Made by a program: the position numbers and the translations under genes. Shown in pieces: positions 25,859 to 49,903 of a DNA stretch of 64,000 nucleotides; positions within the stretch are counted from its first letter, which is position 1; each line of letters starts with the position of its first letter. The stretch comes from Candidatus Bathyarchaeota archaeon (GTDB lineage: Archaea > Thermoproteota > Bathyarchaeia > Bathyarchaeales > Bathycorpusculaceae), in the NCBI GenBank assembly GCA_963768425.1, contig CAVYHV010000017.1, positions 96,001 through 160,000 on the forward strand, given 5' to 3'. The notes below the pieces were generated by a model, which saw only the letters and a program-made list of their open reading frames with translations, did not search any database and had not been told where the DNA came from.

Positions 25859-26358
25859 ACATGAAAATCAAAGGCCCAGTCATAAAATTCGGAAACAACG
25901 TTGACACAGACGTCATTCTGCCAGGAAAATACCTGACGTTGGTTGATCCCCACGAGCTAGCAAAACATGCCTTGGAAAGTGTAGATATAGATTTTCCCCA
26001 GAAAGCAAAGAAAGGCGTGGTTGTAGTTGGCGGCAAAAACTTTGGATGCGGATCCAGCAGAGAACAAGCGCCCTTAGCCTTAAAATACGCTGGCGTGAAA
26101 TGTGTCTTAGCTGAGTCTTTCGCGCGTATATTTTTCCGAAACGCCATCAACATTGGCTTGCCAGTAATTGAATGCAAAGGCATATCGGCAGCTGTTGAGA
26201 CAGGCGATGAGTTGGCTGTAGATTTCGAAGCTGGTAAGGTAGAAAACGTCTCAAACGGCAAAAAGTTTCAAGTAGAGAAGCTACCTCCGTTTATCTTAGA
26301 AATCTTAGCTGATGGCGGATTAATAGAGAATTTACGTAGGAGAATGAACAAGAAATGA
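25855..26358 (+). CDS. leuD: isopropylmalate/homoaconitate dehydratase small subunit
   Basis: DTDVILP, NFGCGSSREQA, SFARIFFRN motifs. Confidence 0.95.
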   Translation: MNMKIKGPVIKFGNNVDTDVILPGKYLTLVDPHELAKHALESVDIDFPQKAKKGVVVVGGKNFGCGSSREQAPLALKYAGVKCVLAESFARIFFRNAINIGLPVIECKGISAAVETGDELAVDFEAGKVENVSNGKKFQVEKLPPFILEILADGGLIENLRRRMNKK

Positions 26359-27392
26359 CAGAATACAAGATTTCGCTGATTCCCGGAGATGGAATCGGTC
26401 CGGAACTCACAGAAGCAACACTGAAAGTGTTAGATGCCGCCCAGAAAAAATACGGCATAAAACTGAAAATTATCGAGGCGGAAGCAGGCGACGACACCTT
26501 GGCAAAAAGAGGCGCAGCGCTACCTGCGGAAAGTGTAGAAATCATTAAGGCATCACACGCTTGCCTTAAAGGCCCGGTTGGCGAAACGGCAGCAGACGTC
26601 ATAGTTAAACTGCGGTTAATGTTTGATTTGTACGCGAATTTGCGTCCGTTGAAGGCTTATCCTAACGTTCCTGTAGCTAGACCCGACATTGACATGATGT
26701 TTGTTCGGGAGAACACCGAGGACGTTTACAAAGGCTTAGAATTCACCGTTGGCAACGACACAGCGATATGCATGAGAATTATTACAAGAGGAAATTGTGA
26801 ACGTATAGCCAAAAAAGCGTTTGAGATTGCACGTTTACGCAACGGCAAAAAGAAAGTAACCGCTATTCACAAGGCAAACGTTATGCGCGTAACAGACGGT
26901 TTATTCGCAAGCGTGTGCCGCGAAACCGCAAAACGCTACCCAGACATCGCATTTAACGAGCTTTATGTTGACGCGGCGTCAATGCGTCTTATCAAAGAGC
27001 CTCAGGTATTCGATGTGTTCTGCACATGCAACATGTTCGGCGACATCCTATCAGACGAAGCAGCCCAGCAAATCGGCGGCTTAGGAATGGCTCCTGGCGC
27101 AAACATCGGTGAAAACTTCGCGCTTTTTGAACCCATCCATGGTTCAGCTCCAAACAGGGCAGGAAAACACACCGCAAACCCAATCTCGATGGTTCTAAGC
27201 GCCAAAATGATGCTGGAGTGGCTCGGCGAAAAATACAACGATAAAAAATGCATGCAGGCAGGCGCGGCGATTGAGAACGGCGTCGTTTACGCGTTACGAA
27301 ACGGTCAAACTGTTCCAGACTGTGGCGGCAACACAACGACCGTGGGAATGGCGGAAGCCATTGCTGCAGCCTTAACAGTGAAAACTGGCTGA
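26355..27392 (+). CDS. leuB: isopropylmalate/homoisocitrate-family dehydrogenase
   Basis: GDGIGPE, RENTED, HKANV, NMFGDILSD, EPIHGSAP motifs. Confidence 0.92.
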   Translation: MTEYKISLIPGDGIGPELTEATLKVLDAAQKKYGIKLKIIEAEAGDDTLAKRGAALPAESVEIIKASHACLKGPVGETAADVIVKLRLMFDLYANLRPLKAYPNVPVARPDIDMMFVRENTEDVYKGLEFTVGNDTAICMRIITRGNCERIAKKAFEIARLRNGKKKVTAIHKANVMRVTDGLFASVCRETAKRYPDIAFNELYVDAASMRLIKEPQVFDVFCTCNMFGDILSDEAAQQIGGLGMAPGANIGENFALFEPIHGSAPNRAGKHTANPISMVLSAKMMLEWLGEKYNDKKCMQAGAAIENGVVYALRNGQTVPDCGGNTTTVGMAEAIAAALTVKTG

Positions 27393-27396
27393 AAAA

Positions 27397-28908
27397 ATGA
27401 CGAGTAAATATATTCGAATCTTAGACACTACCCTAAGAGATGGTGAACAAACTCCCGGGGTTTCTTTAACCTCTGAAGAGAAAATTGAGATTGCACGCCA
27501 ACTAGACAAACTAGGCGTTGACGTTATCGAAGCGGGTTTTCCAAGCTCCTCCGACGGCGAAAAAAAAGTTGTAAGAGAAATTGTCAAGTTAGGTTTAAAT
27601 TCTGAAATCTGCGCCCTTTCCAGAGCGACAAAAAAAGATATTGACGCGGCACTGGATTGCGAAGTCGACTTGATTCACGTTTTCATCCCGACTTCTGCAG
27701 TGCAGATGAAGTACGCCGTCAATTTAACGCCTGAACAAGTTTTAACTTCAGCAGTTGAGTCGATTGAGTACGTTAAGGCACACGGCGTGAAATGCGAGTT
27801 TTCACCTATGGATGCAACACGCTCCGAAATGCCCTTCCTCAAAAAAATCTGCCAAGCCGCACAGAAAGCAGGAATGGACAGCTTAAACCTGCCCGACACA
27901 GTCGGCATAATGATCCCAAGATCAATCATAAAATTCGTTGAAGATGTAAAATCCGTCGTTAACGTTCCAATAAGCATCCACTGCCACGATGACTTCGGAT
28001 TGGCAGTTGCAAACTCGCTGGCTGCAGTTGAAGCAGGCGCCGCTCAAGTGCATGTTGCCGTCAACGGGTTAGGCGAAAGGGCAGGTAACGCTTCGCTGGA
28101 AGAAGTGATTATGGCGCTGCATGTAATTTACAAGTACAAGACAGGCGTAAACAGCCGACTGCTCTACGGCACATCCCGAATGGTTTCCGCATTAACCGGC
28201 ATAGCTGTGCAGGCTAACAAGGCATTAGTCGGCGAAAACGCTTTCGCGCATGAATCCGGCATCCACACACGCGGAGTAACTGAGAAGCCATTAACCTTTG
28301 AACCGATAGACCCCGCACTAGTCGGACGCACAAGAAAACTTGTAGCTGGAAAACTAGCGGGAACAAGCGGCATCAAAGCAGAGTTGGAAGAAGTTGGCAT
28401 TAACCCAACCGAAGAGCAACTGAAAGAGATTGTCCAACGTGTTAAAGAACTTGGTGACAAGGGCAAAATGGTTACAGATGCAGATTTACTGGCGTTAACT
28501 TCCGCAGTTATGGGCGAAGTCATCAAAGAAGAAAAAATCGTTGACTTATGCGATATGGCAGTCGTCACAGGCATAAAAGTCATACCAACAGCCTCAGTGC
28601 GGCTGGTTCTAGACGGCAAAGAATACGTTGCCGCCGAGACAGGCGTGGGTCCAGTTGACGCAGTTCTTAAGGCAATCCAGAAACTAATTAGCAGCCAAGA
28701 AAAAATCCGTCTCAGAGAATATCGGCTTGAAGCTATCACTGGCGGCTCAAACGCCGTTGCAGAAGTCATCATCAAAGTGGAAGATGAAAAAGGCAACATC
28801 GTCTCAGCCCGCGCAGCAAGAGAGGACATTGTGATGGCAAGCGTCGAAGCGATGATAAACGGTATGAACAAGCTTTTGATTAAGCATAAGCAGGAAAACA
28901 AACCTTGA
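27397..28908 (+). CDS. leuA: 2-isopropylmalate/citramalate synthase
   Basis: DTTLRDGEQ, HCHDD, GERAGN, HESGIH motifs and C-terminal regulatory domain; LeuA versus CimA not resolved. Confidence 0.88.
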   Translation: MTSKYIRILDTTLRDGEQTPGVSLTSEEKIEIARQLDKLGVDVIEAGFPSSSDGEKKVVREIVKLGLNSEICALSRATKKDIDAALDCEVDLIHVFIPTSAVQMKYAVNLTPEQVLTSAVESIEYVKAHGVKCEFSPMDATRSEMPFLKKICQAAQKAGMDSLNLPDTVGIMIPRSIIKFVEDVKSVVNVPISIHCHDDFGLAVANSLAAVEAGAAQVHVAVNGLGERAGNASLEEVIMALHVIYKYKTGVNSRLLYGTSRMVSALTGIAVQANKALVGENAFAHESGIHTRGVTEKPLTFEPIDPALVGRTRKLVAGKLAGTSGIKAELEEVGINPTEEQLKEIVQRVKELGDKGKMVTDADLLALTSAVMGEVIKEEKIVDLCDMAVVTGIKVIPTASVRLVLDGKEYVAAETGVGPVDAVLKAIQKLISSQEKIRLREYRLEAITGGSNAVAEVIIKVEDEKGNIVSARAAREDIVMASVEAMINGMNKLLIKHKQENKP

Positions 28909-29717
28909 AAGTAGCCTATCAAGGTGAAACTGGTGCCTACGGCGAAATGGCGGTCTACAAGTTTTTCGGCAGCAAAGTGGAGCCATTTCCCTGCAAGGAC
29001 TTCCGCGATGTCTTCGAATCTGTAAAGACAGGCGCTGTCCCAAATGGTGTGGTCCCGATTGAGAACTCCATCGAGGGAAGCGTCAACCAAAACTATGATC
29101 TTTTCCTCACCTATGACCTCAAAGTTTGCGGCGAAGTTGCTGTGAAGCTTGCCCACGTCCTAATCGGTAATCCAGAAACCAAATTCGAGGACATCAAAAC
29201 CGTTTACTCGCATCCCCAAGCATTAGCGCAGTGCCGCAAATACTTAGAAAAGCACAAGTGGGAAATCATCCCCGCTTATGATACTGCCGGAGCCGTAAAA
29301 ATCATAAAAGAAAAAAACCTCACAAACGCTGCAGCGATCGCAAGCGAAAAAGCTGCAGACCTTTACAGCATGAAGATTCTTTCTCGAGATATCGCCGATA
29401 ATCCATCTAACTACACTCGATTTCTTGTCCTGGGCAATGAAGATGCAGCACCCACAGGTGACGATAAGACCTCGATCATTTTTTCAGCCAAACATGCTCC
29501 TGGAACTCTATACCATGCTCTTGGAGAGTTCGCGTCAAGAAACATCAACCTAACCAGAATAGAATCCAGACCGACAAAAACCACAGCTTGGCAATACAAC
29601 TTTTACCTCGACTTCGAGGGGCACAGAACCGAAAAGCGCTGCGCAGAAGCCTTAGAAGCGCTGGAAAAATACGCTACCTTCGTGAAGATTCTGGGATCTT
29701 ACCCAAGAGTCATTTAA
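28905..29717 (+). CDS. pheA: prephenate dehydratase
   Basis: PIENSIEG, SHPQALAQC, NYTRF, IESRP ACT, LGSYP motifs. Confidence 0.96.
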   Translation: MKVAYQGETGAYGEMAVYKFFGSKVEPFPCKDFRDVFESVKTGAVPNGVVPIENSIEGSVNQNYDLFLTYDLKVCGEVAVKLAHVLIGNPETKFEDIKTVYSHPQALAQCRKYLEKHKWEIIPAYDTAGAVKIIKEKNLTNAAAIASEKAADLYSMKILSRDIADNPSNYTRFLVLGNEDAAPTGDDKTSIIFSAKHAPGTLYHALGEFASRNINLTRIESRPTKTTAWQYNFYLDFEGHRTEKRCAEALEALEKYATFVKILGSYPRVI

Positions 29718-29781: not shown

Positions 29782-30402
29782 CTATCGCTTAACCACGTTC
29801 TTGTAGAAGTTCCCGATTATTCTGTGTCCCTCAGGATGGGTTTCGCTTTTTACAGTTATGCGTTCAGGATGAAATTGGACGCCCCAGAAGGGTTTGCTTT
29901 TGTGTTTGACGGCTTCCACTTCGCATGAAGCTGAATCCGCGAGCAAGATGAAACCTGCTTCGCTCAAGTTCTCTTTCAAAACGTAATCGAAATGGTTTTC
30001 TGAGAGCGGAACAGTTTGGTCTTTTCTGAACCCATCAAATATTCCATTTAATTCAGCTACACGGACCGCCTCAAAACGGTCCAAAACTGGCTGTTTCAAT
30101 GACCCGACTTTGGCGCCGAACGCCCAGCAGAGCAACTGATGCCCAAAGCAAATGCCTAACGTAGGCAACTCACAGGTTCGTATCAGATTAACAACCCCCT
30201 CGAATAGGCGTCTGTCAGAAGAGTCAACTATTCTAACTCCAGAACCGCTGACGATGACAGCGTCAATTTCTCCTTTCACGCAATAGTCTTCATTAATGTC
30301 TTTGAAGTGGATAATTTGGCATTGGCTGAACTTTCCAACGGCTTCAACTAAAGCCTCGCTTTTCGATTTTAAAGAACAGTTCACAACCAACGATTTAGGC
30401 AT
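29782..30402 (-). CDS. class I glutamine amidotransferase (GuaA-A/TrpG-like)
   Basis: GICFGHQ, GVQFHPE catalytic triad; last gene of aro operon. Confidence 0.88.
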   Translation of the reverse strand: MPKSLVVNCSLKSKSEALVEAVGKFSQCQIIHFKDINEDYCVKGEIDAVIVSGSGVRIVDSSDRRLFEGVVNLIRTCELPTLGICFGHQLLCWAFGAKVGSLKQPVLDRFEAVRVAELNGIFDGFRKDQTVPLSENHFDYVLKENLSEAGFILLADSASCEVEAVKHKSKPFWGVQFHPERITVKSETHPEGHRIIGNFYKNVVKR

Positions 30403-30411
30403 CTGGTTTCC

Positions 30412-31288
30412 TTACTTCTCTGTGGCTTCAAGCATTTTGTACATGACTTCGTAGGACTCCGCTAAGTCGGGATCAGCTTTGAGGAGTTTGGCTTTTAGCT
30501 GCTCCATTCGGTCAACGATCGCTTGCGAGTTCTTCTGCTTAAGCAAGTCCAGCCATTCCTGCGCTTTTGCGATGTAAAGGTCTTCGATTTTTGCCATCTC
30601 AGGCAGCTTAATCTGCAGGTTAGCAAATAGATCGGGAGTTTCAAGCGCGGTTACTTCCGCCAGGGTGAAGAGCATGCGGTAAGTCGTCCCAGCCACTTGC
30701 TTGGTTTCAACGAAGCCCTTTTGATCAAGGAGAGTTTCGCAGACGGCTAATCCAAGGAAATGGGGCAATCCGAGAACGACGGACATGAGTTGGTCATGTT
30801 TTTTGGGGGTCATTATGAAAACATGCGCTTCTTCCTTTTCCAGCCATTTCCTAAAGCCATCCGCATACTTCTCCTCGGCATCGTTCGTAGGTGTGAGGAC
30901 GTAAGCTTTGTGTTTTACGCCTTTGCTGCCTGGACCAAAAACCGGATGAGTGCCCAACACCAAGCCATGCTTGATGTATTGATGCATGACTTTGACGGGG
31001 TATTCCTTGATTGAACATATGTCCGTGACCGCCTGCCCATCATGAACGTAAGGAGCTATTTTTTTAACGACATCTTCAAAGCTGCTAATAGAAACGCAAA
31101 TCACGATTTCGTCGGCTGCCTTGACTGCTTCTACAAAGTCAGTGGTAGTTTCAACGCCTAGTTCTTTTCCGAGACTTAGACAGTTTCTCAGCTTTTCTGT
31201 CTGACAGAATTACGCTGTCGCCTTTCTCTTTGCAAAACTTTGCGAACCAAACACCCATTTTTCCCGCGCCGAGAACGGCGGTTTTCAT
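30412..31288 (-). CDS. tyrA: prephenate/arogenate dehydrogenase, indel near 31170
   Basis: MKTAVLGAGKMG start read by hand; DICSIK, HPVFGP, HDQLMS..LGLPH motifs. Confidence 0.93.
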
Positions 31289-32364
31289 TTAAGCGCCTCG
31301 CTGATTTTATCCAACCCGACCTTTATTTCTTCTCTGGGGGCAGTCAAGGAGATTCGGAAGTGTTCTCTGTAGTCGCCAAATGCTGTTCCTGGAGCCACGG
31401 CGACGCCTTTGTCAAGCAGGTCCAATGTGAATTTTTCTGAGTCCAAACCTTTACGTTTGGGGAACACGTAGAAGGGTGCTTCAGGTTCTGTGAAGGAAAG
31501 CCCTGCTTTCGCCAATGTTTTGCATGCAATTTTTGCGCGTTGTGCGTATTCTTTTTCGATGGTTTTAGTAAGGTTCTTCTGCATTTCAAGGCCTTTCAGA
31601 GCTGCTTCTTGGATGAAGACTGGGACGTTGTTTATGGTAATTTGGTTTAGTTTTGTGATGTTGTCAATTAGTGGCTTGTTAGCTATGATGTAGCCGATTC
31701 GCCAGCCTGTCATGGTGAACATTTTTGAGAATCCATTTGAAAGAACGTGGGTGTTGTTGCCGTCGTATTCAAGGATGCTTTTTGTTTTCACGAAGCTGAT
31801 AGGACCATAAACTTCGTCTGACAGAATGGTAATGCCTTTCTTGTTGGCGATTTCCACAATGCCGTCTAAAGTCTTGGAATCCATAACTTTGCTTGTCGGG
31901 TTATTCGGGTTGTTTAGAATTATCATCTTTGTGTTTTTGTCTATCAATGCTTCAAGCTTGCATAAATCCACTTTCCAGCCGTCTTCCATTTCAGTTCTAA
32001 GCAGCCGCGTCTGGGCGCCGATGCTTTTAGCCATCAGATCGTAAGCGGTCCAGTAAGGCGTGGGTATAATGATGTTGCCACCAGCCTTCATTGTTAAATA
32101 GAGGGTTGCAAAGACGCCCCATTTTGAACCTGGTGTGATAACCACGTTTTCGGCTTTTACTCCATGAATTTTAGCGAGTTTTTGCCTTAGTTTTTCCTCG
32201 CCATAAGCTGAAGAATACTTGGTTTTCCCTGCCTTCATCGCAGCGTATGCTGCCTCTACAATCTCCGTGGGCGTGGCTAGGTCAGGGTCACCTAGGTTTA
32301 AGCGGATTATTTTTTTCCCTTGGTTTTCGAGTCTTATGGCTTTCTCGTTTATTTCGTAGAGCAT
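31285..32364 (-). CDS. class I/II PLP aminotransferase (aromatic/aspartate)
   Basis: NNPNNPT, SDEVY, SKMFTMTGWRIG motifs. Confidence 0.93.
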   Translation of the reverse strand: MLYEINEKAIRLENQGKKIIRLNLGDPDLATPTEIVEAAYAAMKAGKTKYSSAYGEEKLRQKLAKIHGVKAENVVITPGSKWGVFATLYLTMKAGGNIIIPTPYWTAYDLMAKSIGAQTRLLRTEMEDGWKVDLCKLEALIDKNTKMIILNNPNNPTSKVMDSKTLDGIVEIANKKGITILSDEVYGPISFVKTKSILEYDGNNTHVLSNGFSKMFTMTGWRIGYIIANKPLIDNITKLNQITINNVPVFIQEAALKGLEMQKNLTKTIEKEYAQRAKIACKTLAKAGLSFTEPEAPFYVFPKRKGLDSEKFTLDLLDKGVAVAPGTAFGDYREHFRISLTAPREEIKVGLDKISEALK

Positions 32365-32393
32365 TAGTGAACTTTCCTTTTTCTGATTATTTC

Positions 32394-32657
32394 TTACTCT
32401 TGAACTGCACTGCACATATTAACTATTTCGCGGTAGAGTGCCTCAACTTTCTGGGAATCTAAGCCTAATTCACCAGATTTCTCTTTCACTTTTTTGTAAA
32501 CATCGTTTTCTCTGGAGACATCTTTTACAGGCATGCCGCGCTTCTTCTTCACTAAACCAATAGCCATGCATATCTTGATTCTTTCAGTCAGAGATTTCAA
32601 AATCAAATCGTCTACTTGGTCAACCTGCTTTCGGTACATTTCAAGCTCATCTAACAA
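32394..32657 (-). CDS. chorismate mutase (AroQ type)
   Basis: R..VD.VD..I...L.ER, K...GMPVKD..RE, VQE end; GGAGG before TTG. Confidence 0.92.
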   Translation of the reverse strand: MLDELEMYRKQVDQVDDLILKSLTERIKICMAIGLVKKKRGMPVKDVSRENDVYKKVKEKSGELGLDSQKVEALYREIVNMCSAVQE

Positions 32658-33765
32658 TTTTCTTTGCCTCCAAGACTTTCGAAATGAAACCACCACGGAT
32701 CATATGGTCAGCTAACGTAACAGCTACAGCGGCTTCCACCACCGGCACGGCTTTCGGGACCACACAGGGGTCATGCCTTCCTTTGACGGTTACAGATGCA
32801 TCTTCCATATTGGACATGTTCACGGTTTTCTGCGGCAAGCTGATGGAAGGCGTCGGTTTAATCGCTACCAGCATGAGAATTGGCATGCCGTTTGATAAGC
32901 CCCCCAAGATTCCACCCATGTTATTGGTGAAAGATGCAACTTTCCCGTTTTGCATGACGTAAGCGTCGTTGCTTTCTGAGCCTTTTGACTCAGCGATCCC
33001 GAAACCCAACCCGAATTCAACTGCTTTGACCGCTGGAACATTAAACAGCGCCTTAGCTAAATCAGCGTCAAGAGAGTCAAACAATGGCTCGCCTACCCCC
33101 ACTGGAACGTTGAGAACAAGACATTCGACTACGCCGCCTACGCTTTCACCTTCTTTTCTGGCTTCAACAATGACTTCCTTCATAATTTCACTGCACTCCA
33201 AGTCAGGGCATCGAGTCGCCGCCACATAACGATTCCTTCGGATCACTTCAGAACTAAACTTTTTGTCGCTTCTGATTTTGCCTATTGCTCTTGTATATGC
33301 TAAAACGTCGACGTCGAAGCGGCTTAGCAGTTTCTTGGCTATGGCGCCAGCCATTATTAATGCGACTGTGAGTCTTCCGCTGAAGCGTCCGCCCCCACGG
33401 TAATCGTTAAAGCCGCCGTACTTGATACTTGCAGTGTAGTCTGCGTGCCCGGGTCTTGGCAGATTCTTGTTTACCTCATAGTCTGAGGAGTCAACTTCTT
33501 TGTTCTCCACTGTCACCGCTATTGGTGCACCAGTCGTGAATCCATTAAAGACGCCTGAAAGGATTTTAGGCATGTCTTTTTCGATCCTTCCCGAAACAAT
33601 TTTGGGATCAGATGGGATGCGTCTGTCCAACTCGTCTTGAATGTCCGCTTCAGAGAGAGCTAAGCCTGCCGGGCAACCATCCACAACTACACCTACGATT
33701 TTGCCGTGGCTTTCTCCGAAACTGGTGACAACGAATTCTTTACCTATCGAATTTCCCGCCAACAA
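32647..33765 (-). CDS. aroC: chorismate synthase
   Basis: FGESHG, PRPGHAD, KPTPSI, GRHDPC motifs. Confidence 0.97.
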   Translation of the reverse strand: MLAGNSIGKEFVVTSFGESHGKIVGVVVDGCPAGLALSEADIQDELDRRIPSDPKIVSGRIEKDMPKILSGVFNGFTTGAPIAVTVENKEVDSSDYEVNKNLPRPGHADYTASIKYGGFNDYRGGGRFSGRLTVALIMAGAIAKKLLSRFDVDVLAYTRAIGKIRSDKKFSSEVIRRNRYVAATRCPDLECSEIMKEVIVEARKEGESVGGVVECLVLNVPVGVGEPLFDSLDADLAKALFNVPAVKAVEFGLGFGIAESKGSESNDAYVMQNGKVASFTNNMGGILGGLSNGMPILMLVAIKPTPSISLPQKTVNMSNMEDASVTVKGRHDPCVVPKAVPVVEAAVAVTLADHMIRGGFISKVLEAKKIVR

Positions 33766-35044
33766 TTTCCGCTCCTAACTGTTGTAGATGAATAAAGAAC
33801 TGTGGATAAGACTTTCTGACGCATTGAGCGTTTTGAATGAGAGTTTGCTTTTCCGCGCCTAGGGCTGCTACCGCGCAAGCCATCACTATACGATGGTCAT
33901 TGTGGGGGTTAATTGTGGCGCCGTGCAGGCTAGCGGTTTCCTTTATAGTTAGGCTGCTTGAATCCACTTCTATTTTGGCCCCCATCTTTGCGAATTCAGA
34001 ATGGAGGGATAGCAGCCTATCAGATTCTTTTAGCTTGAGCCTTTGCGCTCCGCTGATTTTTGAGGTACCTTTGGCGAAACATGCAAGAGCCGTGCACACT
34101 GGGACAAGATCAGGGATGTTTCTTGCATCGATGTTGAGTGGCTCAAGCGGACTTCCGACGCCGTCTATTTCGACGCTGTTCTCACAAACCTTGCCAGCTA
34201 CGCCCATTTGCTTGAGAATACCCAAAATTGCTTTGTCGCCCTGAATGGTCTCGTAATCGAGATCGTTTATCTGCACTTTTGAGTTAGTTACGGCTGCGGC
34301 TGCCAATAGAAATGCGGCTGAAGAGAAGTCTCCGGGCACTCGACAATCAACGGGCTTGAAGGTTTGGTTGGCTGGAATGACGATACTTTCGAAATTTCCG
34401 TAAACGTCCACTCTGATCCCATGCTTTGAGAGCACGTCCAAAGTCATCTTGACGTAGTCCGTTGACTCCAGCGGCGAGGTGAGCTTAATTTCAGTGTCAA
34501 CTTTAGCCATTGGGCATGCAAACATTAGACCCGAAATGAACTGGGAAGTAACATCGCCGCGAATTGAGGTTTGTCCTCCGAGGATTCCGCCGCCCTCGAC
34601 AATTACTGCGTCTTTGCCTCCGAATTTTTTTATATGAACCCTTGTGCCCAAATCGTCGAGGCTTTTGATTAGTGGTTCGATTGGTCTGCGGTTAAGAGAG
34701 CCGCGGAAGAGCAGCGTGGAAGAGTCACTTGCTAGGGCAGCTAGGGGTATCATGAAACGTAGCGTAGCCCCAGATTCTCCGCAGTCAACGGGTGCTTTCG
34801 CGTTTTGAATCGGCGCTGCGCCTTTGATAACCCAGCAGTTTTCCTCAAAGCTTGTTTCTGCACCTAACGCCGTTATCCCGCGCAAGGTAGCTTCTGTGTC
34901 TTCGGAAAGAAGCGGGTTTGAGACTTTTCCGGTACCGAATGAAAGCGCCGCTGCGATGAGCATTCTCTGTGTGTAAGATTTTGAAGGGGGAGCGCATAAT
35001 TCGCCTTTTAGTTTTTCAGATTTTTTAACGATTACGTCGACCAT
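33740..35044 (-). CDS. aroA: EPSP synthase
   Basis: PPSKS, GESGATLRF, SQFISG, KESDR, DHRI, KSYP motifs. Confidence 0.97.
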   Translation of the reverse strand: MVDVIVKKSEKLKGELCAPPSKSYTQRMLIAAALSFGTGKVSNPLLSEDTEATLRGITALGAETSFEENCWVIKGAAPIQNAKAPVDCGESGATLRFMIPLAALASDSSTLLFRGSLNRRPIEPLIKSLDDLGTRVHIKKFGGKDAVIVEGGGILGGQTSIRGDVTSQFISGLMFACPMAKVDTEIKLTSPLESTDYVKMTLDVLSKHGIRVDVYGNFESIVIPANQTFKPVDCRVPGDFSSAAFLLAAAAVTNSKVQINDLDYETIQGDKAILGILKQMGVAGKVCENSVEIDGVGSPLEPLNIDARNIPDLVPVCTALACFAKGTSKISGAQRLKLKESDRLLSLHSEFAKMGAKIEVDSSSLTIKETASLHGATINPHNDHRIVMACAVAALGAEKQTLIQNAQCVRKSYPQFFIHLQQLGAEIVGGKFDR

Positions 35045-35045
35045 G

Positions 35046-35916
35046 CTAAATCACCTTTGCTTTCTCCTGGTTGAAGTTGGCTTGCAAGACTTCGCCGTCG
35101 AATTTCTTAAGCGCAGCACTCACCGAATCAACTTTGCCCTTGGGCGTAACTGCTGTTACCGCTGGTCCTTTACCGCAGAGCCCAGCCGCCACCGCCCCAG
35201 CTTCCAACGCGTCAATCGCGATTGAGGAGTCATACCCCCATGCTGATGAGTAGATTATGCCGTTGAGCGTCAACGACTCCCAGAACTTGCCCGCTAAAGC
35301 TTCTTCGTAGGCAACTTGAACTAGCGGTTTTACTTTTCGTGCCCTCTCAACGTTTGAGTCAGCTGTGTAGGATTTTTCCAGAGGAACATGGAAAAGCACA
35401 ACCAAATCTTCAGGCAAAGGTGACTTTCTGAGAAGTTTCTGCTCCAAATTGTCAGTAATAACCACGCCGCCGAAATATGAAGCGCATGCATCGTCAAAAG
35501 CGCCCGTAACTGTCACTTTAGCGTCGAAAGCAGCGTCAACGCCCAGCCTGACGATTTCAACGTCATCCAGCGTTTCGCCCAAGAGCCGCTATAGTTGCCA
35601 ACGCAACCGCATTAGCTGCGGCACTGCTGCTTTTAAGCCCCTTTGCGATGGGAATGTTGGACCAAGTTTTGACTTTGGCGCCGAATCTCCTCTCCGCCTT
35701 AAAATATTGGAGAACTCGCGCGACAGTTTTTTCCATCAGAACCGTGCTTTCTTTCGGATCAGAAACTATCTCTGCGTTGAAAATCGCGACCTCATCCGTC
35801 AATTCTACCTGCGCCTTCGTAAACAGGTCAACTCCGAAAGCGGCGCCTTTGCCCAGCGCCATTGCGTTAACAATCGTTGCTGCGCCATGAGCTATAGCTG
35901 TGGCTTCCTTCGTCAA
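35046..35916 (-). CDS. aroK: archaeal (GHMP-type) shikimate kinase, split by indel near 35580
   Basis: IVNAMALGKGAAFG, GLKSSSA, TGAFDDACAS, G.GPA motifs. Confidence 0.93.
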
Positions 35917-36780
35917 CTCTTCTGCACCTTTCGCAAGTGACTAAGCGCTGCCTCCCTCATAACTTGAACTGGCGCCTTAGCTCCAGTCCAGATTTCAAAT
36001 GACGCTGCCCCTTGATAAATCAGCATTTCAACCCCACTGACCACTTTGGCGCCTGCAGCCTTCGCTTTTTTCGCTAATTTGGTTTCGATTGGGTTGTAGA
36101 CTATATCCATTACAGCTAAGTCAGGCTTGAGCCATTTTGGGGCTACCAGAGTTTCGTTATCGTTTGGTTTCATCCCGACTGAGGTAGCGTTAATCAGAAT
36201 GTCAGCATCAACTAGATTTCCTTTGACCGTGAGGGGGGAAAGCGCGTACGCAAACACTTTGCTGTCAAATGTTTCCTTTATGAGGTCAGCTAACTGGGCA
36301 GCTGGCACAATTGAACGATTCAAAATTGAAATCTCTGCTGTGTGCTCGGCCAAAGCGAAGGCTATAGCTCTTGCAGCGCCGCCTGCGCCAAGCAACATTA
36401 CTTTTTTGCCCTTGGGCTCAACTCCATTTTCTCTCAGAGCTGACAATGCACCGACGCCGTCAGTGTTAAAGCCCAAAAGTTTGCCATTTTCATTCTTTAC
36501 TGTGTTAACTGCCTTCAGAGCCTTGGCTGCCGGGTCAACTTCATCCAAGAAGCTAAGTACAGAGGCTTTATAAGGCATCGTAACGTTCAAGCCCTGAATC
36601 CCCAACGCACGTACGCCGTCCATGGCTTTTCCAACGTCAGGAGATTTTACATTAAACGCTAAGAATGTGCAGTCAAGTTTGGTTGCATGCAAACGCCGCG
36701 TTCTGCATAACTGGACTTAAGCTATGCTCAATGGGGTCGCCGATTACTCCGAAAACCTTGGTTTTCCCTGAAACAGCCAT
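35913..36780 (-). CDS. aroE: shikimate dehydrogenase, indel near 36690
   Basis: GDPIEHSLSP (read by hand), NVTMPYK, NTDG, GAGGAA, NATSVGM motifs. Confidence 0.95.
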
Positions 36781-36781
36781 T

Positions 36782-37465
36782 TCACTGTGCCCCCAAAAGC
36801 TCGTATGCAGCCTTCATTTTGCCGATAGACATTTGCCCCTTCGCAGTTTCGCTACCCTGCTCAAGACAAGCAAAAGTGAAGAAAGCGCCGAACATCGGTG
36901 AAATAAGCCTTGAAACCTTCCCTTCTTCGCCCATGCAGAAACAGACAAGCTTCACCTTACCTGAATGGGAAGATACAAAATTCAGCACTTCCAAATTGTC
37001 CTCGATTTTCTTGGCTGTCACCACAATTTTGCAGACGTTGGCGCCGCATGCGACTTCTTGCTCAAGAACGTTTTCCATCGATGAACGGCTTAATTCGCCG
37101 TCGAATTTGTGGTGGGAAACTATTATTTTGGCGCCCAGCTGCTTGAGTTTTTCGATTATTTCTTGGCGATTCGGGCTTGACAGGTCAACGTCAACGTACT
37201 CGAACCCGTTTTGGGCTGCATTTAGAAGACTTTGTTGACGTTCGGTTTCTGACGCCGAGGAAACGCCGTTTTCACTGGTCAGTTTATGGGTTGCGATTAA
37301 AGGGATTTTTGCGCTCTGAATAAATGCCTTCAAGTCTGTTGTAACATCCATGCGGTCGAGCCTAACTTCGATTAGGTCGGCTTTGGCTTCCTCCGCGCTT
37401 TTGATGAGGTTTAACGCTTCAGCCGTGTTTTTTGGAAGAATCGAAACGCAGATTCTCATTGTCAC
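36782..37465 (-). CDS. aroD: type I 3-dehydroquinate dehydratase
   Basis: IEVRLD, IVSHH, CKI, FCMGEEGKVSR, TA.GQ motifs. Confidence 0.95.
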   Translation of the reverse strand: MTMRICVSILPKNTAEALNLIKSAEEAKADLIEVRLDRMDVTTDLKAFIQSAKIPLIATHKLTSENGVSSASETERQQSLLNAAQNGFEYVDVDLSSPNRQEIIEKLKQLGAKIIVSHHKFDGELSRSSMENVLEQEVACGANVCKIVVTAKKIEDNLEVLNFVSSHSGKVKLVCFCMGEEGKVSRLISPMFGAFFTFACLEQGSETAKGQMSIGKMKAAYELLGAQ

Positions 37466-38504
37466 CTTTCAATCACCGTTTCTTCAGGCACGGAAACGCC
37501 AAAGTGCCTGCCTCCCTTAGCGGCTAAATGCACCAGAACCTCGTCGTTTACGTTGAGTTCCGTGACGGGTTTGGAGGCTTTCGGCGTGACAAGGCGGATG
37601 GTTTCAGCGTTTTGCAGTATAGTTTTGATTTTTGTGTCGTCCGCTTGCGCTTCAATCAGGATGAGTGGTCGGAACTCGATTTTTGACCTGCCCACATTGG
37701 TTATTCTTGCTTTTCCTTCTCTGTTAATGATTAAAACTTCGTCCCCGGCTTTCAGTTCAGAGAGGTACCGAGTGTTCTGGATCGATGTTAGCGTGTAATG
37801 TGATGCAGGTCCAGCGTTCACTCGGAAGGGTCGGGATTGCACATACGGGTTCTCATTTACTTCCGCCTCAACGAGGAAGAACCCTGCTGATTGGCAGCCA
37901 ACGAGCATTCCCTCGCCTGGAACCATCAAATCTACAGTGTCCACGCAGACTCTTGCACCTGTGCCGATAGTTTGAATGGAGAGAACCTTTGCGATCGTTA
38001 ACGCGACCTTAGGAATTTGACCCTTGACCAGCTTTACTGTTTTGGCGAGTTCATTGAGGTTTGAGGTTTTTAGTAGAACACCGTCTGTTCCCAGCTCTAA
38101 GGCTTCAAGAACCACTTTGGCTTCTTGCGCGGTGGCGACTTCGCGATAAGTTTGCTTTTACCCCCATGCGCCTTCGCAATTAAGTTCTCCAGCGGGATAA
38201 CACGCCAATCAAACGTGCTAATAATTATGTAATCAACTCCCATCTCAGCCGCTTTGGCAGCGCGGTTCTCTTCTTCTTTCCCTGTTATGTTGATTTTAAC
38301 GGCGGTTTTTCTGCTTTCATTTTTAGTTTGCGAAATTTTTTTCTCAGACAGATCAGCGAGGAAAACTATGTCTAATTTGCCGTTACGGGTGCTCGCTTGG
38401 GTTCCTTCGAGCACTACATCCGCGTTTTCATGTGCAGTGCTGAGCAAGTTTTCTTTTTCTTGCGGTGAAGCCGCATGTTCGATTTCTACCCAAAGTTCCT
38501 TCAC
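37462..38504 (-). CDS. 3-dehydroquinate synthase II (AroB'), split by indel near 38130
   Basis: DWRVIPLENLIA, RVCVDT, RPFRVNAG, LQNAETI, GRHFG motifs. Confidence 0.94.
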
Positions 38505-39291
38505 GTTTTTTCACCGAGAATTTTAGCGCTTCTTGCACGCTGGCGCCGCCGTGAACGATTGCTGAGAGCGCCTTGACGATTAGGGTTGGGTTTTCATGTT
38601 GGAAGACGTTGCGTCCGATTGAAAGCCCAGATGCTCCAGCTGAAAGGGCGTCATGTGTGGTTTGGAGAACTTCTTCAGAAGTCTTGCATTTCGGTCCCCC
38701 GGCAATCACCACTGGAACGGGGCAACTCTCCACCACGGTTTTGAAGGTGTCTATGCTTCCTGTAAAGTTTGCTTTGATGATGTCTGCGCCAAGCTCGGCG
38801 CCGATTCGTGCTGCATGAGCAACGACGTCGGCTGCGTGTTCATTTTGTATTTTGGGTCCCCGAGGATACATCATTGCAAGAAGCGGCATGCCGTAAACAT
38901 CACATTCGTCGGCTACGCTACCAAGGTTTTGAAGCATTTTGTCTTCGTCTTGGGCGCCGATGTTAACGTGCACTGAAACCGCGTCTGCACCAAGGCGAAT
39001 TGCTTCCTGTACGCTGCAAACTTGGACTTTGCCGTTCACGTTCGGGCTAAGGTTTGACATGCCTGAAAGCATCACGATTAACCCTACGTCATCAGCGTCG
39101 GTGTGTTTAGCGATGCCTTTGTGGACAAGGACGGCGTCGGCGCCGCCTTTGATGAGTTGATCGATTGTTTTCTGCATGTTGGTTAACCCTTGGATTGGGC
39201 CGATTGTTACGCCGTGGTCCATAGGTACGATTACAGTACGGTTGTCTTGCTGCATTATTCTTCTTAGTCTTCGACTTTTTCCTTGATTCAT
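38501..39291 (-). CDS. 2-amino-3,7-dideoxy-D-threo-hept-6-ulosonate synthase (AroA', class I aldolase family)
   Basis: PMDHG, MMYPRG, ELGADIIK, AGGPK, GRNVFQ; adjacent to DHQ synthase II; 3' indel. Confidence 0.92.
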
Positions 39292-39300
39292 GTTTCCACC

Positions 39301-40549
39301 TTACTTAGCGCTCCTTAAAGAGTTTTTAATCATTTTGAGGGCTTTTTCCCGTTCATTCCAATCCACAAAAAGTAGGATGCTTGACGTTATTGTCAGTATT
39401 CCTGAAATGTTTATGCCGCTAACTCGCAAATCTTCACTGATTTTCCCAATTATGCCGTGGGTTTCCTCCAAGCCGACGCCGCTTGTCTTTATGAAAACAA
39501 GGTCCTTTTTCACAGCCATAGCGATCGTTTCCTTGTTGCTCTTTGTTATATTGTGGATATCGTTGAATAACCCCTCCAAGTTTGCTTCTTCTGAAACGTA
39601 AAGGATAACGGAGTTCGTGTTCATCGACATGCCCAAGAGATGCGAATGCAGCTTCGTTTTCTCAACCATCTCCTGAACGATCTGCGGGTTAGCTGAGATG
39701 CCGTTCCCTATCACGGTAATTTCGGCGACAGGGAAAGGATGCGCAATTTCAGCGTCAAGCTCACTGGCTAAGTCCACCTGTAACTAACGTTCCTTCTTCT
39801 GAAAGGTTGCCGCAGGCGTGGTTGATGACGCGGACGTTGATATTTTTGGGTTTGTACTTTAACGCTTTGCTGTGGATGAATTTCGCACCTGAATCGGCAA
39901 GCCCAACTAGCGTGTTGACATCGATTTCTTTTAGACGCTCAACGTTGGAAAGAAGTTTCGGGTCTCCTGTCATGATGCCGTTAGCGTCTGTTACCAAGAT
40001 GATTTCGTTCGCTCCTAGCGCTTCGGCGAGGACAAAGGCCGTTGTGTCGCTTCCACCTCTTCCAAGAGTTGTGATTTTGCCGTCTTTGGTTTTACCCAAG
40101 AAACCTGCAACCACGGGAACTGTGCCTTTTTCCATGATTGGCAGGACGCATTCACGGATATTTTTTTCGCAGTCTTTGAGGATTGGATTAGCATTTTGAA
40201 AGGCTGCATCAGTTATTATAGGCCAGTTGCTGTCAATCGGGTCAAAATAGCAGGATTCCGCTCCGTTCGTTCTTAGCGCTGTTGAGAAGATTCGGATGCT
40301 GGTCCGCTCACCCATCGACAGGATATCGTCCAAATCTTTTTTCTCCAGTTTCCCGTTGGAAGCGTTCTTCGCCGTAGCCATGAGGACATCAGTTGTTTTG
40401 CCCATAGCGGAAACTACAACAGCGATCCGAGTGCCTTTTTTAGCTTCATTAACCACAGCAACCACAGCTTTTAAGAGTCTTTCGTGATCCGCTAGGCTAG
40501 ACCCACCGAATTTAACAACAATTGTTTTGTTAGAGCGAGTTTTCTCCAT
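39301..40549 (-). CDS. lysC: aspartate kinase, split by indel near 39770
   Basis: KFGGSS, VVSAMG, TTLGRGGSDTTA motifs and C-terminal ACT domains. Confidence 0.93.
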
Positions 40550-40566
40550 TTGTTACACCCGTGCTT

Positions 40567-40605
40567 GCCCAGAACCAACCCCAAAAAAATTCTTTAGTTC
40601 TGGGC
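40567..40605 (-). promoter_or_regulatory. attenuator-like hairpin enclosing a U7 tract
   Basis: mRNA sense GCCCAGAACTAA-AGAATTTTTTTGGGG-TTGGTTCTGGGC; 12 bp with one G.U; 5' arm is the last codons and stop of the leader ORF. Confidence 0.75.
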
Positions 40606-40689
40606 TTGAGGAAAATAACTATAATAAAAGTAGTCGAAGCTCTGGAACCATGAGGCAACGTTTTCTTTGTTGAGTGCGAGATTAGACAT
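40594..40689 (-). CDS. putative aromatic leader peptide MSNLALNKENVASWFQSFDYFYYSYFPQAQN
   Basis: 31 codons; 9 of residues 14-26 aromatic (1 W, 4 F, 4 Y); stop 44 nt before the first gene of the aro operon. Confidence 0.85.
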   Translation of the reverse strand: MSNLALNKENVASWFQSFDYFYYSYFPQAQN

Positions 40690-40728
40690 TGAAGCTTCGA
40701 ACCTTGCAGAATGAGTCATAAAATAGAA

Positions 40729-40744
40729 AATATAAGCGTTTCGG
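40729..40744 (-). promoter_or_regulatory. BRE/TATA promoter of leader plus aro operon
   Basis: Minus strand CCGAAACG-CTTATATT, about 40 nt before the leader ATG. Confidence 0.65.
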
Positions 40745-40850
40745 ATTCAGCCTCCATTTTAGTCGCCTGCCTGAGACTTTTAGGCCTTGAAATCTGTGTA
40801 TAGCATTTATCAACTTGTCCATTCTATAACAACAAGCAGGAAGAGCCGCC

Positions 40851-41687
40851 ATGAAAACTCAAAACCAAAGCAACTGGCAAAGTATCCTTCTCGAATGCAA
40901 AAACAATGTTCAGAAAAGCATCGCGCCCTGCCTCAAAACTATCAAAGAAACTCAACCCAACCTTGGAGTGGGCGCAGGCGGCGACTCGATGAAGCCTATG
41001 GATTTAGCGGCTGAAAAAGCGATCATAGACACCTTGAACCTACATAAAGTTTCGTTTACTTTAATCAGCGAGGAATCGGGGGTAAAGCAATTTGGCGAGT
41101 CGGCGAATGAGTGTTTTGTTACGGTTGACCCGATTGATGGAAGCACAAATTTCATGCGTGGCTTACCCTTCTACGCATGCTCTATCGCGGTTTCAGATAA
41201 GCCTCGGCTAGCGGATGTTTACGCTGGGTTGGTCGCAGACCTCTTCCATGATGTGACGTACACTGCTTTATTGGGGAAAGGCGCATTCCGGGACGGAAAA
41301 AAGATTGAACCCTCAAAAACTGCGTCGTTGGATGAGGCGCTGATAGGTTTAGATCTGAATACTTACAAAGTCAAAGAGGTTGCGCCCAAAGTAACTGCAC
41401 TTATCGAGAAAACTAAGCATATACGCCACTTCGGTGCAAACGCGCTGGAACTCTGCTACGTGGCCGATGGCTCAACAGACGCGTTCGTCGACTTACGAGG
41501 GAAACTGCGCACAACTGACGTCGCAGCGGGTTTCCTCATCATAAAAGAGGCAGGCGGAATTGTTACAACCCCAGATGATCAAGCCATAGATGTCGAGTTA
41601 GACCCTAAGCGGACGTTGAGTTTTATCGCTTCAAGCAACAGGAAAATCCACGAAAAAATCTTAAGCCTGGTTAAAAAACCATGTTAA
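40851..41687 (+). CDS. inositol monophosphatase / FBPase family protein
   Basis: ISEE, DPIDGSTN, RTTDVAAG motifs. Confidence 0.92.
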   Translation: MKTQNQSNWQSILLECKNNVQKSIAPCLKTIKETQPNLGVGAGGDSMKPMDLAAEKAIIDTLNLHKVSFTLISEESGVKQFGESANECFVTVDPIDGSTNFMRGLPFYACSIAVSDKPRLADVYAGLVADLFHDVTYTALLGKGAFRDGKKIEPSKTASLDEALIGLDLNTYKVKEVAPKVTALIEKTKHIRHFGANALELCYVADGSTDAFVDLRGKLRTTDVAAGFLIIKEAGGIVTTPDDQAIDVELDPKRTLSFIASSNRKIHEKILSLVKKPC

Positions 41688-48477: not shown

Positions 48478-49167
48478 TTACGAGATTATTTTTGCTTCTC
48501 CACTTCCTTTGGTTACGTCGCCAAGTTTAGTCAGCAACGAGGCGTAGGATCCAGCGGGCAACTCTAATTCGCCATACCACGAGCCGTCTCCACGCCATTC
48601 CTCCCGTTTTATAGTTCCTAAGGTTTTTACTGACCCATAAGCCCGTGCAGAGTATTGTGCGGGAACCTTCACTGCTACTATAACTTGCTCGATTTTCAGG
48701 GGCAAAATCGGACGTAGCAGCTTAACGATGTCTCTTGCTTGTTCCTCAACTGGTTTGTACGGGTCAATCGGGTAACGTATCTGATCCATCGCGTTCTCGA
48801 TGCGCATTGGAGGATGCGGCAGGTTTGTCTTTGGGTCTACTGCTTGTCGGGAGATGAAATCTATTATTTGTCTTCTTTTGTCTTCCACCATTTTTCGTCT
48901 TTGTTCAGTTGTAAGCTGAAGCGTTCCCTTCTTCAGTATGATATCGGCGATTTGCAGTGCATTCACTGTTCCAAAGGCTTTGTGCATAGATTCCTCTGAA
49001 ACTTTGGTTCCTTTGTTTGCGTCAGAAAAAATCAGTTCAGCAGCTAAAACTTCGGTTATTCCTGAGATTTTTCCGTTGCGGTAGTCAAGTGCTTTTTGAG
49101 GTTTGACTAGGATTTCAAAATGCTCGTTTTCTTTTGTTAGGCGTGCAACGGTGAACTTTTCACTCAT
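48478..49167 (-). CDS. ribosome maturation factor SBDS/Sdo1
   Basis: HFEILV, QLTTEQR, PHPPMRIE motifs. Confidence 0.96.
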   Translation of the reverse strand: MSEKFTVARLTKENEHFEILVKPQKALDYRNGKISGITEVLAAELIFSDANKGTKVSEESMHKAFGTVNALQIADIILKKGTLQLTTEQRRKMVEDKRRQIIDFISRQAVDPKTNLPHPPMRIENAMDQIRYPIDPYKPVEEQARDIVKLLRPILPLKIEQVIVAVKVPAQYSARAYGSVKTLGTIKREEWRGDGSWYGELELPAGSYASLLTKLGDVTKGSGEAKIIS

Positions 49168-49174
49168 CAGGTTT

Positions 49175-49903
49175 TCACTTGCTTGAACCCAGCTCTTTGA
49201 TGTAGCCTTCCACTTTGTCGTCTGCCAGCATTTCCATTTTCTTTGTCTCTAAGGGTATGATCGCGATCTTTATTCTTGGAGGCAGCTGTCGTGCTTCTAA
49301 GGCTTTGACTAAGCATTTTACTGCTAGTTTGATGCCTGCTTCGAGCGATAAGTCGTCTTTGTAGTCTTCTTTGAGGATTGACAGGACGGTTTCTCTTCCT
49401 GCGCCAAGTGCTGTGGCTTTGTATCCTCGGTAGGTTCCGCTTGGATGTGTGCCGAAGACACGTGTACCTGTTTTGTCGACGCCGCCGAAGATTATTGAGA
49501 CTCCGAAGGGTCGAACACCGGCGTGCTGCGTGTACATCTGCTGGATGTCGCATATTCTTTTGGTGACGACTTCAACATCTATGGGTTCATCGTAGGTTAA
49601 TTTGTTACTTTGAGCGTAAATCCGCGCTTGATCGATAAGTATTCGGGCGTCTGAACTTAAACCGACTATCGCCGCGCCGATATGATCATCTACCCTGAAG
49701 ATTTTCCATGAGTACCCTGCTTCTTCAAGGACTTCGATGTTTTCTTCTGAGCCCAAAACTAAGCCTTCTTGGCATTGGATGCCTAAGATGGTGGCTCCAC
49801 GGTTCACTAGTTCCATTGCGTATTCGACTTGGAAGAGTCGTCCGTCCGGCGAGAAAACGGTTATTGCACGGTCATATGCTCCTGGTGCTGCAAAGACTGA
49901 CAT
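49175..49903 (-). CDS. psmA: proteasome alpha subunit
   Basis: YDRAITVFSPDGRLFQVEYA, RPFGVS motifs. Confidence 0.97.
   Translation of the reverse strand: MSVFAAPGAYDRAITVFSPDGRLFQVEYAMELVNRGATILGIQCQEGLVLGSEENIEVLEEAGYSWKIFRVDDHIGAAIVGLSSDARILIDQARIYAQSNKLTYDEPIDVEVVTKRICDIQQMYTQHAGVRPFGVSIIFGGVDKTGTRVFGTHPSGTYRGYKATALGAGRETVLSILKEDYKDDLSLEAGIKLAVKCLVKALEARQLPPRIKIAIIPLETKKMEMLADDKVEGYIKELGSSK

Follow-up and report, generated by a model that had tools for sequence, protein, structure and literature searches.

A short upstream open reading frame (uORF) rich in Tyr and Phe codons, ending beside a stable hairpin, stands at the head of the aromatic amino acid operon in the stretch of Candidatus Bathyarchaeota archaeon DNA studied here. 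The whole stretch of 64,000 nucleotides will be referred to as the window, and the features of the leader are read on its minus strand. The element is real and deeply conserved. Judged from sequence comparisons, it is probably a ribosome-sensing leader peptide of a distinct archaeal design, by which the supply of Tyr and Phe is reported to the operon. An earlier note, made from the letters of the window, had proposed a translated Phe/Tyr-rich leader at this position. This core idea has strong comparative support: a uORF rich in Tyr/Phe codons, with a stable hairpin right at its end, is present in 52 of the 54 pooled, de-duplicated loci of the order, and its frame is maintained in all 41 aligned sequences of the genus.

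The elements of the leader and the operon are listed here in the direction of transcription. The positions given for them in the earlier note all check on the minus strand.

40744-40729, minus strand: promoter element with B recognition element (BRE) and TATA box, ccgaaacgcttatatt, from sequence reading
40694..40703, minus strand: element A, GGTTCGAAGC, predicted 5′ end of the transcript and 5′ strand of helix A:B, from the alignment and RNAalifold
40594..40689, minus strand: uORF of 31 codons and a stop, encoding the candidate leader peptide MSNLALNKENVASWFQSFDYFYYSYFPQAQN, from translation of the open reading frame (ORF)
40689-40687, minus strand: ATG start codon of the uORF, from sequence reading
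40612..40650, minus strand: control-codon run WFQSFDYFYYSYF, with 1 Trp, 4 Phe and 4 Tyr (9 aromatic residues in 13), from translation
40633..40641, minus strand: element B, AGCTTCGAC, in the codons for Ser-Phe-Asp, 3′ strand of helix A:B, directly before the aromatic run, from the alignment
40606..40608, minus strand: CAA codon, replaced in relatives by a TAA or TAG stop next to the stem, with which the uORF usually ends, from the alignment
40567..40605, minus strand: hairpin C:D with a 12-bp stem, from folding and RNAalifold
40605-40594, minus strand: 5′ arm of the hairpin, GCCCAGAACUAA, from folding
40596-40594, minus strand: TAA stop codon of the uORF, from sequence reading
40579-40593, minus strand: hairpin loop of 15 nt, with U7 at 40589-40583, from folding
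40578-40567, minus strand: 3′ arm of the hairpin, UUGGUUCUGGGC, from folding
40556..40560, minus strand: GGGTG, Shine-Dalgarno (SD)-like word of the aspartokinase gene, kept in the alignment
40549, minus strand: ATG of the aspartokinase gene, from the ORF
29782..40549, minus strand: downstream operon, from aspartate kinase to a glutamine amidotransferase (GATase), from Pfam and NCBIfam

The CCGAAACGCTTATATTTT portion of the BRE/TATA element is kept in the genus alignment, and the exact promoter 12-mer has only 3 copies in the genome by word count. The transcription start site (TSS) would lie near element A, as judged solely by its spacing from the TATA box. An in-frame alternative ATG at 40719 would lengthen the uORF, but it sits at the expected TSS. 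Translation bears out the earlier count of nine aromatic codons among the 13 of WFQSFDYFYYSYF. The bases directly 3′ of the stem are AAGCAC, and the U7 tract is confined to the loop. The leader is intergenic, with a divergent fructose-bisphosphatase/inositol-phosphatase gene (start at 40851, plus strand) on its other side.

The gene content of the operon is as the earlier note described it, based on Pfam and NCBIfam. Aspartate kinase is followed by 2-amino-3,7-dideoxy-D-threo-hept-6-ulosonate (ADH) synthase (TIGR01949, above cut-off), 3-dehydroquinate (DHQ) synthase II, DHQase I and shikimate dehydrogenase, and then by an archaeal shikimate kinase, 5-enolpyruvylshikimate-3-phosphate (EPSP) synthase, chorismate synthase, a CM_2 chorismate mutase, an aminotransferase, prephenate dehydrogenase and the GATase, which is generic. 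This is the archaeal aromatic pathway of the 6-deoxy-5-ketofructose 1-phosphate (DKFP) type together with the Tyr/Phe branch. Its products are precursors of Tyr and Phe, and this context supports the reading of the uORF as a Tyr/Phe leader.

The uORF and its aromatic bias are retained upstream of the kinase gene in relatives. The uORF is found in all of the first 30 genus loci, where its end and the kinase start are 45-65 nt apart and its tail resembles SFDYYFYYYHFP. It is present in 12 additional loci, 6 from the genus and 6 from three other families of the order, and in 12 of 14 named Bathyarchaeia loci. The tails in other families of the order, encoded by dissimilar DNA, include MFYSFSYYFYN, PFFGSFGYFGY and LFAYFGYNI. 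The two exceptions among the 54 loci of the order have a different conserved frame (FGGHIYG...). In GC-rich lineages, the tail PFFGSFGYFGY is carried by TTC/GGC-rich DNA that cannot be aligned to that of the genus. As the aromatic codons are found even where the DNA is unalignable, the property that has been kept is the aromatic codons and not the DNA. A second, internal promoter (the TATA-like GGCTTTTATTAT) was considered for this region and rejected, as GC-rich lineages keep the aromatic codons without TATA-like DNA.

The comparison was extended with an even draw across the class. A kinase match at E ≤ 1e-60 was found in 56 of 101 genomes, and 40 upstream regions were taken, of which 39 were usable. 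At least six aromatic residues among the last 14 are present in 17-18 of these 39 loci, from at least 10 families, with FFDFFYYYFYFE and PYYYYYYYCFF as examples of the tails. In comparison, a scan of 1760 upstream regions in the genome of the window finds 14-codon tails with at least six aromatic residues in 27 and with at least seven in 8.

Over 69 leaders, the last 14 codons have on average 3.7 Phe, 4.1 Tyr and 0.16 Trp, or 7.9 aromatic residues. Both Phe and Tyr are present in all 69, and any Trp in 11. The control codons had been described earlier as mostly Phe and Tyr with one Trp; the Phe and Tyr codons are conserved as a feature, but the Trp codon is not.

Two variants of the leader were observed in other lineages. 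The first is a second type of conserved uORF with few aromatic codons (..LFGDGVY.., ..MGGHLYWH.. and ..FGGHIYGGHYW..), which replaces the Tyr/Phe run in other Bathyarchaeia families and is located upstream of aspartokinase in loci L135, L136, L138, L148, L153-L155, L055 and L056. The second is found in the leaders of one family (f14; L140, L141 and L143), where as many as seven Tyr codons stand in a row. The run is followed directly by a perfect hairpin, GCUUCGAAACC...GGUUUCGAAGC, and then by U5 and GGAGG. The words in the arms of this hairpin are the A and B elements of the genus in another placement.

Several features of the genus alignment suggest that the uORF is translated. The ATG is invariant except in one sequence, which has it shifted 4 nt downstream. 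In every one of the 41 sequences, 42, 45 or 48 nt separate the ATG from element B, such that the frame is kept, and the N-terminal half of the uORF varies freely. The core of element B is invariant, synonymous sites included, and element A is nearly invariant in the 41 sequences. Gap runs in the MAFFT alignment are a multiple of 3 in 5 of 9 cases inside the uORF and 8 of 29 outside, a comparison confounded by alignment artefacts. Among Tyr codons, the leaders have 193 TAT and 90 TAC, while TAT is the rarer one in the long ORFs of the genome (36%); the leaders are related to one another, and this preference is only a hint of coding. In a low-depth DNA contig of a related strain (record 2 of run X1), 107 unlike letters replace positions 40618-40725 and both flanks are kept, which fits the free variation of the N-terminal half.

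RNAalifold finds two compatible helices in the genus alignment. Helix A:B is formed by the 5′ word (U)UCGAAG and by CUUCGA(A/C) in the Ser-Phe-Asp/Glu codons, and helix C:D is the hairpin after the stop. The fraction of cells paired is 98.4% for A:B, with 1 compensatory pair, and 98.1% for C:D, with 2 compensatory pairs. For both helices together it is 98.2%, compared to 23-49% when the partners are slid. There are 3 pairs with double changes, against 0.4 in shuffles, and none of 500 shuffles reaches 3. Helix C:D is the better supported of the two, because other families have a hairpin of unrelated sequence at the same position.

The position of this hairpin is nearly constant among the leaders. 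In 63 of 67 the gap between stop and hairpin is at most 3 nt, the median stability is -17.1 kcal/mol, and the last aromatic codon is no more than 3 codons from the stop in 66 of 67. An SD-like word could be identified in 54 leaders, and in 49 of them it lies no more than 8 nt beyond the 3′ end of the hairpin. The stop codon overlaps the stem in the window, as had been noted before, but this is not the usual arrangement: the stop is 2-3 nt upstream of the stem in 38 of the 41 genus sequences. Related peat populations read TAA at 40608-40606, and G>A at 40608 (plus strand) is found in RNA run X18 and DNA run X1.

The U-runs are less regular. The U7 of the loop, a prominent part of the earlier description, is present in the window but is not a general feature. 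A run of T4-T7 is found in the loop of 36 of the 41 genus sequences and is missing in 5. Over the 67 leaders, U4 or longer is present inside the hairpin in 49 and absent in 18. Outside the genus, a U-run, if present, follows the hairpin, and no position of a U-tract is universal. Counts of U4 or longer after the stem were not used, as RNAfold absorbed the U's into the stem. A cmscan search of 40350-40950 against Rfam (E ≤ 10) gave no leader family and only two chance matches to long non-coding RNAs. A scan of bacterial promoters and terminators found nothing relevant, with no terminator at the hairpin of the window.

The leader is also present in RNA-library sequence. A metatranscriptome contig of 268 nt, 97% identical and with a depth of 4, covers 40427-40694. 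Its sequence begins 5 nt before the ATG, spans the hairpin with its U7 and reaches the kinase gene, and this extension beyond the ATG argues against a TSS downstream of 40689. Over 40695-41019 there is no RNA contig, while the DNA run is continuous. In RNA runs X19 and X20 the leader is not covered by a contig, a gap from which nothing can be concluded. The evidence is weak but concordant that the uORF is on the transcript of the operon and that read-through molecules exist.

In the explanation favored here, a promoter about 45 nt upstream would give a transcript starting near GGUUCGAAGC, from which a peptide of 27-31 codons would be made first, with Tyr and Phe accounting for about two-thirds of its last dozen codons. 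The speed of the ribosome over these codons would report the supply of charged tRNA-Tyr and tRNA-Phe. The stop abuts a hairpin of about -17 kcal/mol, which ends about 7 nt before the Shine-Dalgarno sequence of the first enzyme gene, and helices A:B and C:D would leave the U-rich Tyr/Phe tract as the sole long single-stranded part of the leader. When Tyr or Phe is scarce, a ribosome parked on the tract, against the hairpin, would shield the leader from FttA/aCPSF1 or RNases, and the operon would be on. When both are ample, the ribosome would finish and depart, and the naked tract would lead to early termination or degradation.

Shielding is favored as the output step because the right sign of regulation needs either a stalled ribosome that protects the leader or a departed ribosome that exposes it. 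This step, with a logic like that of tna rather than trpL, is put forward tentatively, as a possible one. A passage of PMC11616081 proposes FttA as a Rho-like monitor of the coupling between transcription and translation, and a passage of PMC8716108 describes the cooperation of aCPSF1 with U-tracts and the U-tracts as archaeal terminators.

The proposed mechanism resembles that of Escherichia coli tnaC-tnaAB. There the ribosome stalls when it reaches the end of the leader ORF (a passage of PMC8429421 describes the stalling of TnaC) and keeps the termination factor Rho off the neighboring RNA. What matches here is the geometry only: stop and hairpin adjoin in 63 of 67 leaders, and the control codons run to within 3 codons of the stop in 66 of 67. 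TnaC senses free Trp via the nascent chain and induces a catabolic operon. In contrast, the stall here would come from uncharged tRNA at many codons and would serve a biosynthetic operon, and the dependence on a factor is presumed.

There is also a likeness to the pheL-pheA type of leader in E. coli and gamma-proteobacteria (with trpL, hisL, thrL, leuL and ilvL). Both have a short uORF in the leader of a biosynthetic operon, a run of end-product codons near the end of the uORF, and then a hairpin before the first enzyme gene. The pheL peptide of E. coli ends with Phe-Pro-stop. The pheL genes are described as short and with runs of Phe codons in a passage of PMC3082878. The differences from this type are considerable. 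The leader described here is archaeal, and Tyr and Phe would be sensed together. One hairpin abuts the stop, instead of four segments with a 2:3 antiterminator. There is no U-run after the stem in this genus and no match to a leader in Rfam, and the bacterial mechanism would have the wrong sign. Two traits of bacterial attenuators are present, namely the run of end-product codons in the uORF and the retention of the uORF and its codon bias in orthologous leaders. A mutually exclusive pair of terminator and antiterminator, between which the ribosome would choose by its position, was not found; A:B and C:D are compatible.

Several observations weigh against the reading of the element as a Tyr/Phe-sensing leader peptide. 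When the 5535 small ORFs that precede long ORFs in this genome are ranked by their runs of any amino acid, the uORF comes about 12th, and its composition is unexceptional. The whole 171-nt leader folds no better than shuffles (z -0.70). It is conservation, and not the single sequence, that places the leader above chance. At the level of the class, 21-22 of 39 loci have no clear aromatic uORF; some of these loci have the second type of uORF described above, and some of their kinases are weaker matches and may not be aro-linked. No cognate Trp- or His-rich ORF lies before the trp and his operons of this genome (contig C6 about 49800-49860; C30:133749-133999), and the only candidate frame before trpE, MGNRLWHNNDKNQTS, has one Trp. 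Leaders of this kind are therefore not a general strategy of the organism.

The remaining points concern the structure, the RNA and the mechanism. The support for the helices from the genus alignment is modest: the sequences are close, covariation is thin, and the alignment used to score the pairs is also the one that yielded the structure. Helix A:B does better than shuffled sequence (p ≤ 0.05) in 24 of the 65 leaders, most of them from the family of the window, and the model with two flanking helices may thus not hold across the class. The RNA support is one assembled contig from a library that may hold DNA, and contigs show neither ends nor strand. What the comparisons show is the anatomy, its conservation, the kept frame, the helices and the presence of RNA across the leader; translation, the TSS, the sensing, the sign of regulation and the output step are inferred.

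Other small ORFs with codon runs in this genome (MMTITTIAAIIT, and an aromatic-rich one before cofE) were set aside, as there is no matching amino acid operon downstream. The ORF before cofE, with QSFYFLFYYFFDNFVVNYFF (C22:79399-79566; positions 500-667 of L122), ends 15 nt before a cluster of the F420-0:gamma-glutamyl ligase gene (cofE) and cofC. The synthesis of F420 begins from tyrosine; this ORF may be an AT-rich spacer read in frame. A frame with DHDFVYVSYWFYYD on contig C9 has no start codon. A regulon of a transcription factor recognizing GGTTCGAAGC or the stem words was rejected as well, with genome counts equal to those expected by chance (5 compared to 5.6, and 23 compared to 22.6).

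Transcription attenuation of the bacterial type, proposed in the earlier note, is an unlikely alternative to the sensing mechanism described above. Here the position of the ribosome would set the stem that overlaps the stop, and hence the termination of RNA polymerase at the U7 of the loop. The tract is present in the window, U4 or longer is found inside the hairpin in most leaders (the 49 of 67 given above), and U-tracts act as terminators in archaea (PMC8716108, in the passage cited above). In L031/32, L053, L054, L036, L134, L140/141/143 and L145, the hairpin is followed directly by U4-U6, as in an intrinsic terminator, but no such stem with a direct U-run precedes the first gene in the window. 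Moreover, 5 of the 41 genus sequences are without T4 or longer either in the loop or after the stem, 18 of the 67 leaders lack a run of U4 or longer within the hairpin, only this assembly has its stop within the stem, and the RNA contig passes through U7.

Nor was a structural switch for such attenuation found. The earlier note had the position of the ribosome decide whether the stem forms, and so control the exposure of U7 or downstream initiation, and this was not supported: no conserved antiterminator or SD-sequestering alternative was found. When C or D was blocked in the 41 genus leaders, no consistent new partner appeared; with D blocked, C mostly stays unpaired or takes the SD region as its partner. 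Visual inspection of three other families had suggested that the 5′ untranslated region pairs with C (A:C); this pairing does better than shuffled sequence in only 9 of 65 leaders and was discarded. With one hairpin, the 5′ arm would be covered only by a ribosome at the stop, and RNA polymerase would read through in times of amino-acid plenty and terminate in times of shortage. By this reasoning, a single-hairpin terminator would have the wrong sign for a biosynthetic operon, and models in which the ribosome pushes a paused polymerase would have the same wrong sign.

Control of translation is improbable too. A ribosome on the uORF would expose or hide the SD sequence of the kinase gene (erm/cat type), or the hairpin would hand terminating ribosomes to the kinase start. 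The hairpin does end 2-8 nt before the SD sequence in 49 of 54 leaders, and in GC-rich families its 3′ arm is CCUCC-like, by eye, and could pair with GGAGG. On thermodynamic folding only, the accessibility of the SD sequence is 0.42 without a ribosome and 0.49-0.52 with a ribosome on the leader. However, with the ribosome masked the values are alike for a stall 6 codons before the stop (0.52) and for a ribosome at the stop (0.49), the stall being higher in 32 of 51 leaders, so the release of the SD sequence by a stall that characterizes erm/cat leaders is not seen. In addition, the distance from the uORF stop to the kinase start (45-90 nt) is long for reinitiation, and under the hand-on model expression would go up with an ample supply of amino acids.

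It is highly unlikely that the peptide itself is the sensor or the product, either as a nascent arrest peptide for free Tyr/Phe (of the TnaC type or the fungal arginine attenuator peptide (AAP) type) or as a functional small aromatic peptide. Within the family, the peptide is conserved beyond its aromatic residues (S-F-D/E ... F-P-stop), and arrest in amino-acid excess would have the right sign with a single hairpin. Pro-stop endings terminate slowly. However, the N-terminal halves are free to vary, and only aromatic richness is shared across families, as the tails listed above illustrate (SFDYYFYYYHFP, MFYSFSYYFYN, PFFGSFGYFGY, FFDFFYYYFYFE and PYYYYYYYCFF), which argues for function at the level of codons rather than motifs.

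Finally, a +1 frameshift is scarcely credible. In this model, starved ribosomes would slip on U UUU N, translate across the hairpin in the new frame and then open the kinase start or couple to it. C-UUU-UAU is kept at the nucleotide level, and in 34 of 52 leaders the +1 frame has no stop between the aromatic run and the last 12 nt before the kinase start. However, the +2 frame is likewise open in 21 of 52, which shows how common open frames are in these leaders, and in L031/32/49, L034, L036 and L053 the +1 frame meets a stop immediately. The distance from the uORF stop to the kinase start is 0, 2 and 1 modulo 3 in 20, 17 and 4 of 41 sequences, such that no frame is kept through the hairpin and a conserved +1 frame into the downstream gene, of the prfB type, is absent.

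Several genes behind the leader are split in this assembly. The aspartate kinase gene is divided into 39761-40549 and 39301-39777, while it is unbroken in relatives (411-430 aa). DHQ synthase II is split by a frameshift (38097-38504 and 37462-38115), and the shikimate kinase gene at 35046-35582 is also broken, with only model positions 103-264 matched. The trpE gene of this genome (contig C6, about 49100-49800) is likewise split by a frameshift. Other sequencing runs have 1-nt indels at 39770, 38141 and 38521. Given these indels and the intact relatives, the splits are probably due to indels in the assembly and do not indicate pseudogenes. The prephenate dehydratase gene (pheA), at 28905-29717, is convergent to the aro operon. 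It is the third gene of a cluster on the plus strand (26355-29717), after genes for an isopropylmalate/homoisocitrate dehydrogenase-like protein and 2-isopropylmalate synthase.

Ribosome-mediated attenuation is a textbook mechanism of bacteria that rests on the coupling of transcription and translation, and archaea couple the two processes as well. A search of full-text literature for leader-peptide attenuation in archaea, with subscription journals outside its scope, returned bacterial cases only, in agreement with the statement of the earlier note that it is not established there. One general sentence in PMC10219788 has uORFs acting in archaea too, and that passage gives no example; in PMC2965389 archaea appear only in the reference list.

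The leader can serve as an annotation marker for the aromatic operon of the DKFP type, and is a candidate amino-acid-responsive part for archaeal hosts. We give about even chances to the broader proposition that archaea own a widespread class of leader-peptide sensors for amino acids, constructed unlike the four-segment attenuator of bacteria, with control codons at the end of a uORF, a single hairpin between the stop and the ribosome-binding site, and shielding by a parked ribosome from an archaeal termination or cleavage factor. If so, the Tyr/Phe leader of Bathyarchaeia would be a well-sampled and testable example of that class. Conserved in an abundant uncultured class, it offers a system for asking whether archaeal ribosomes gauge amino-acid supply in cis. 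It also raises the questions of how such a signal would be read out when the RNA polymerase stops at U-tracts and the factor involved is of the CPSF type, and whether sensors of this kind originated independently of those in bacteria.

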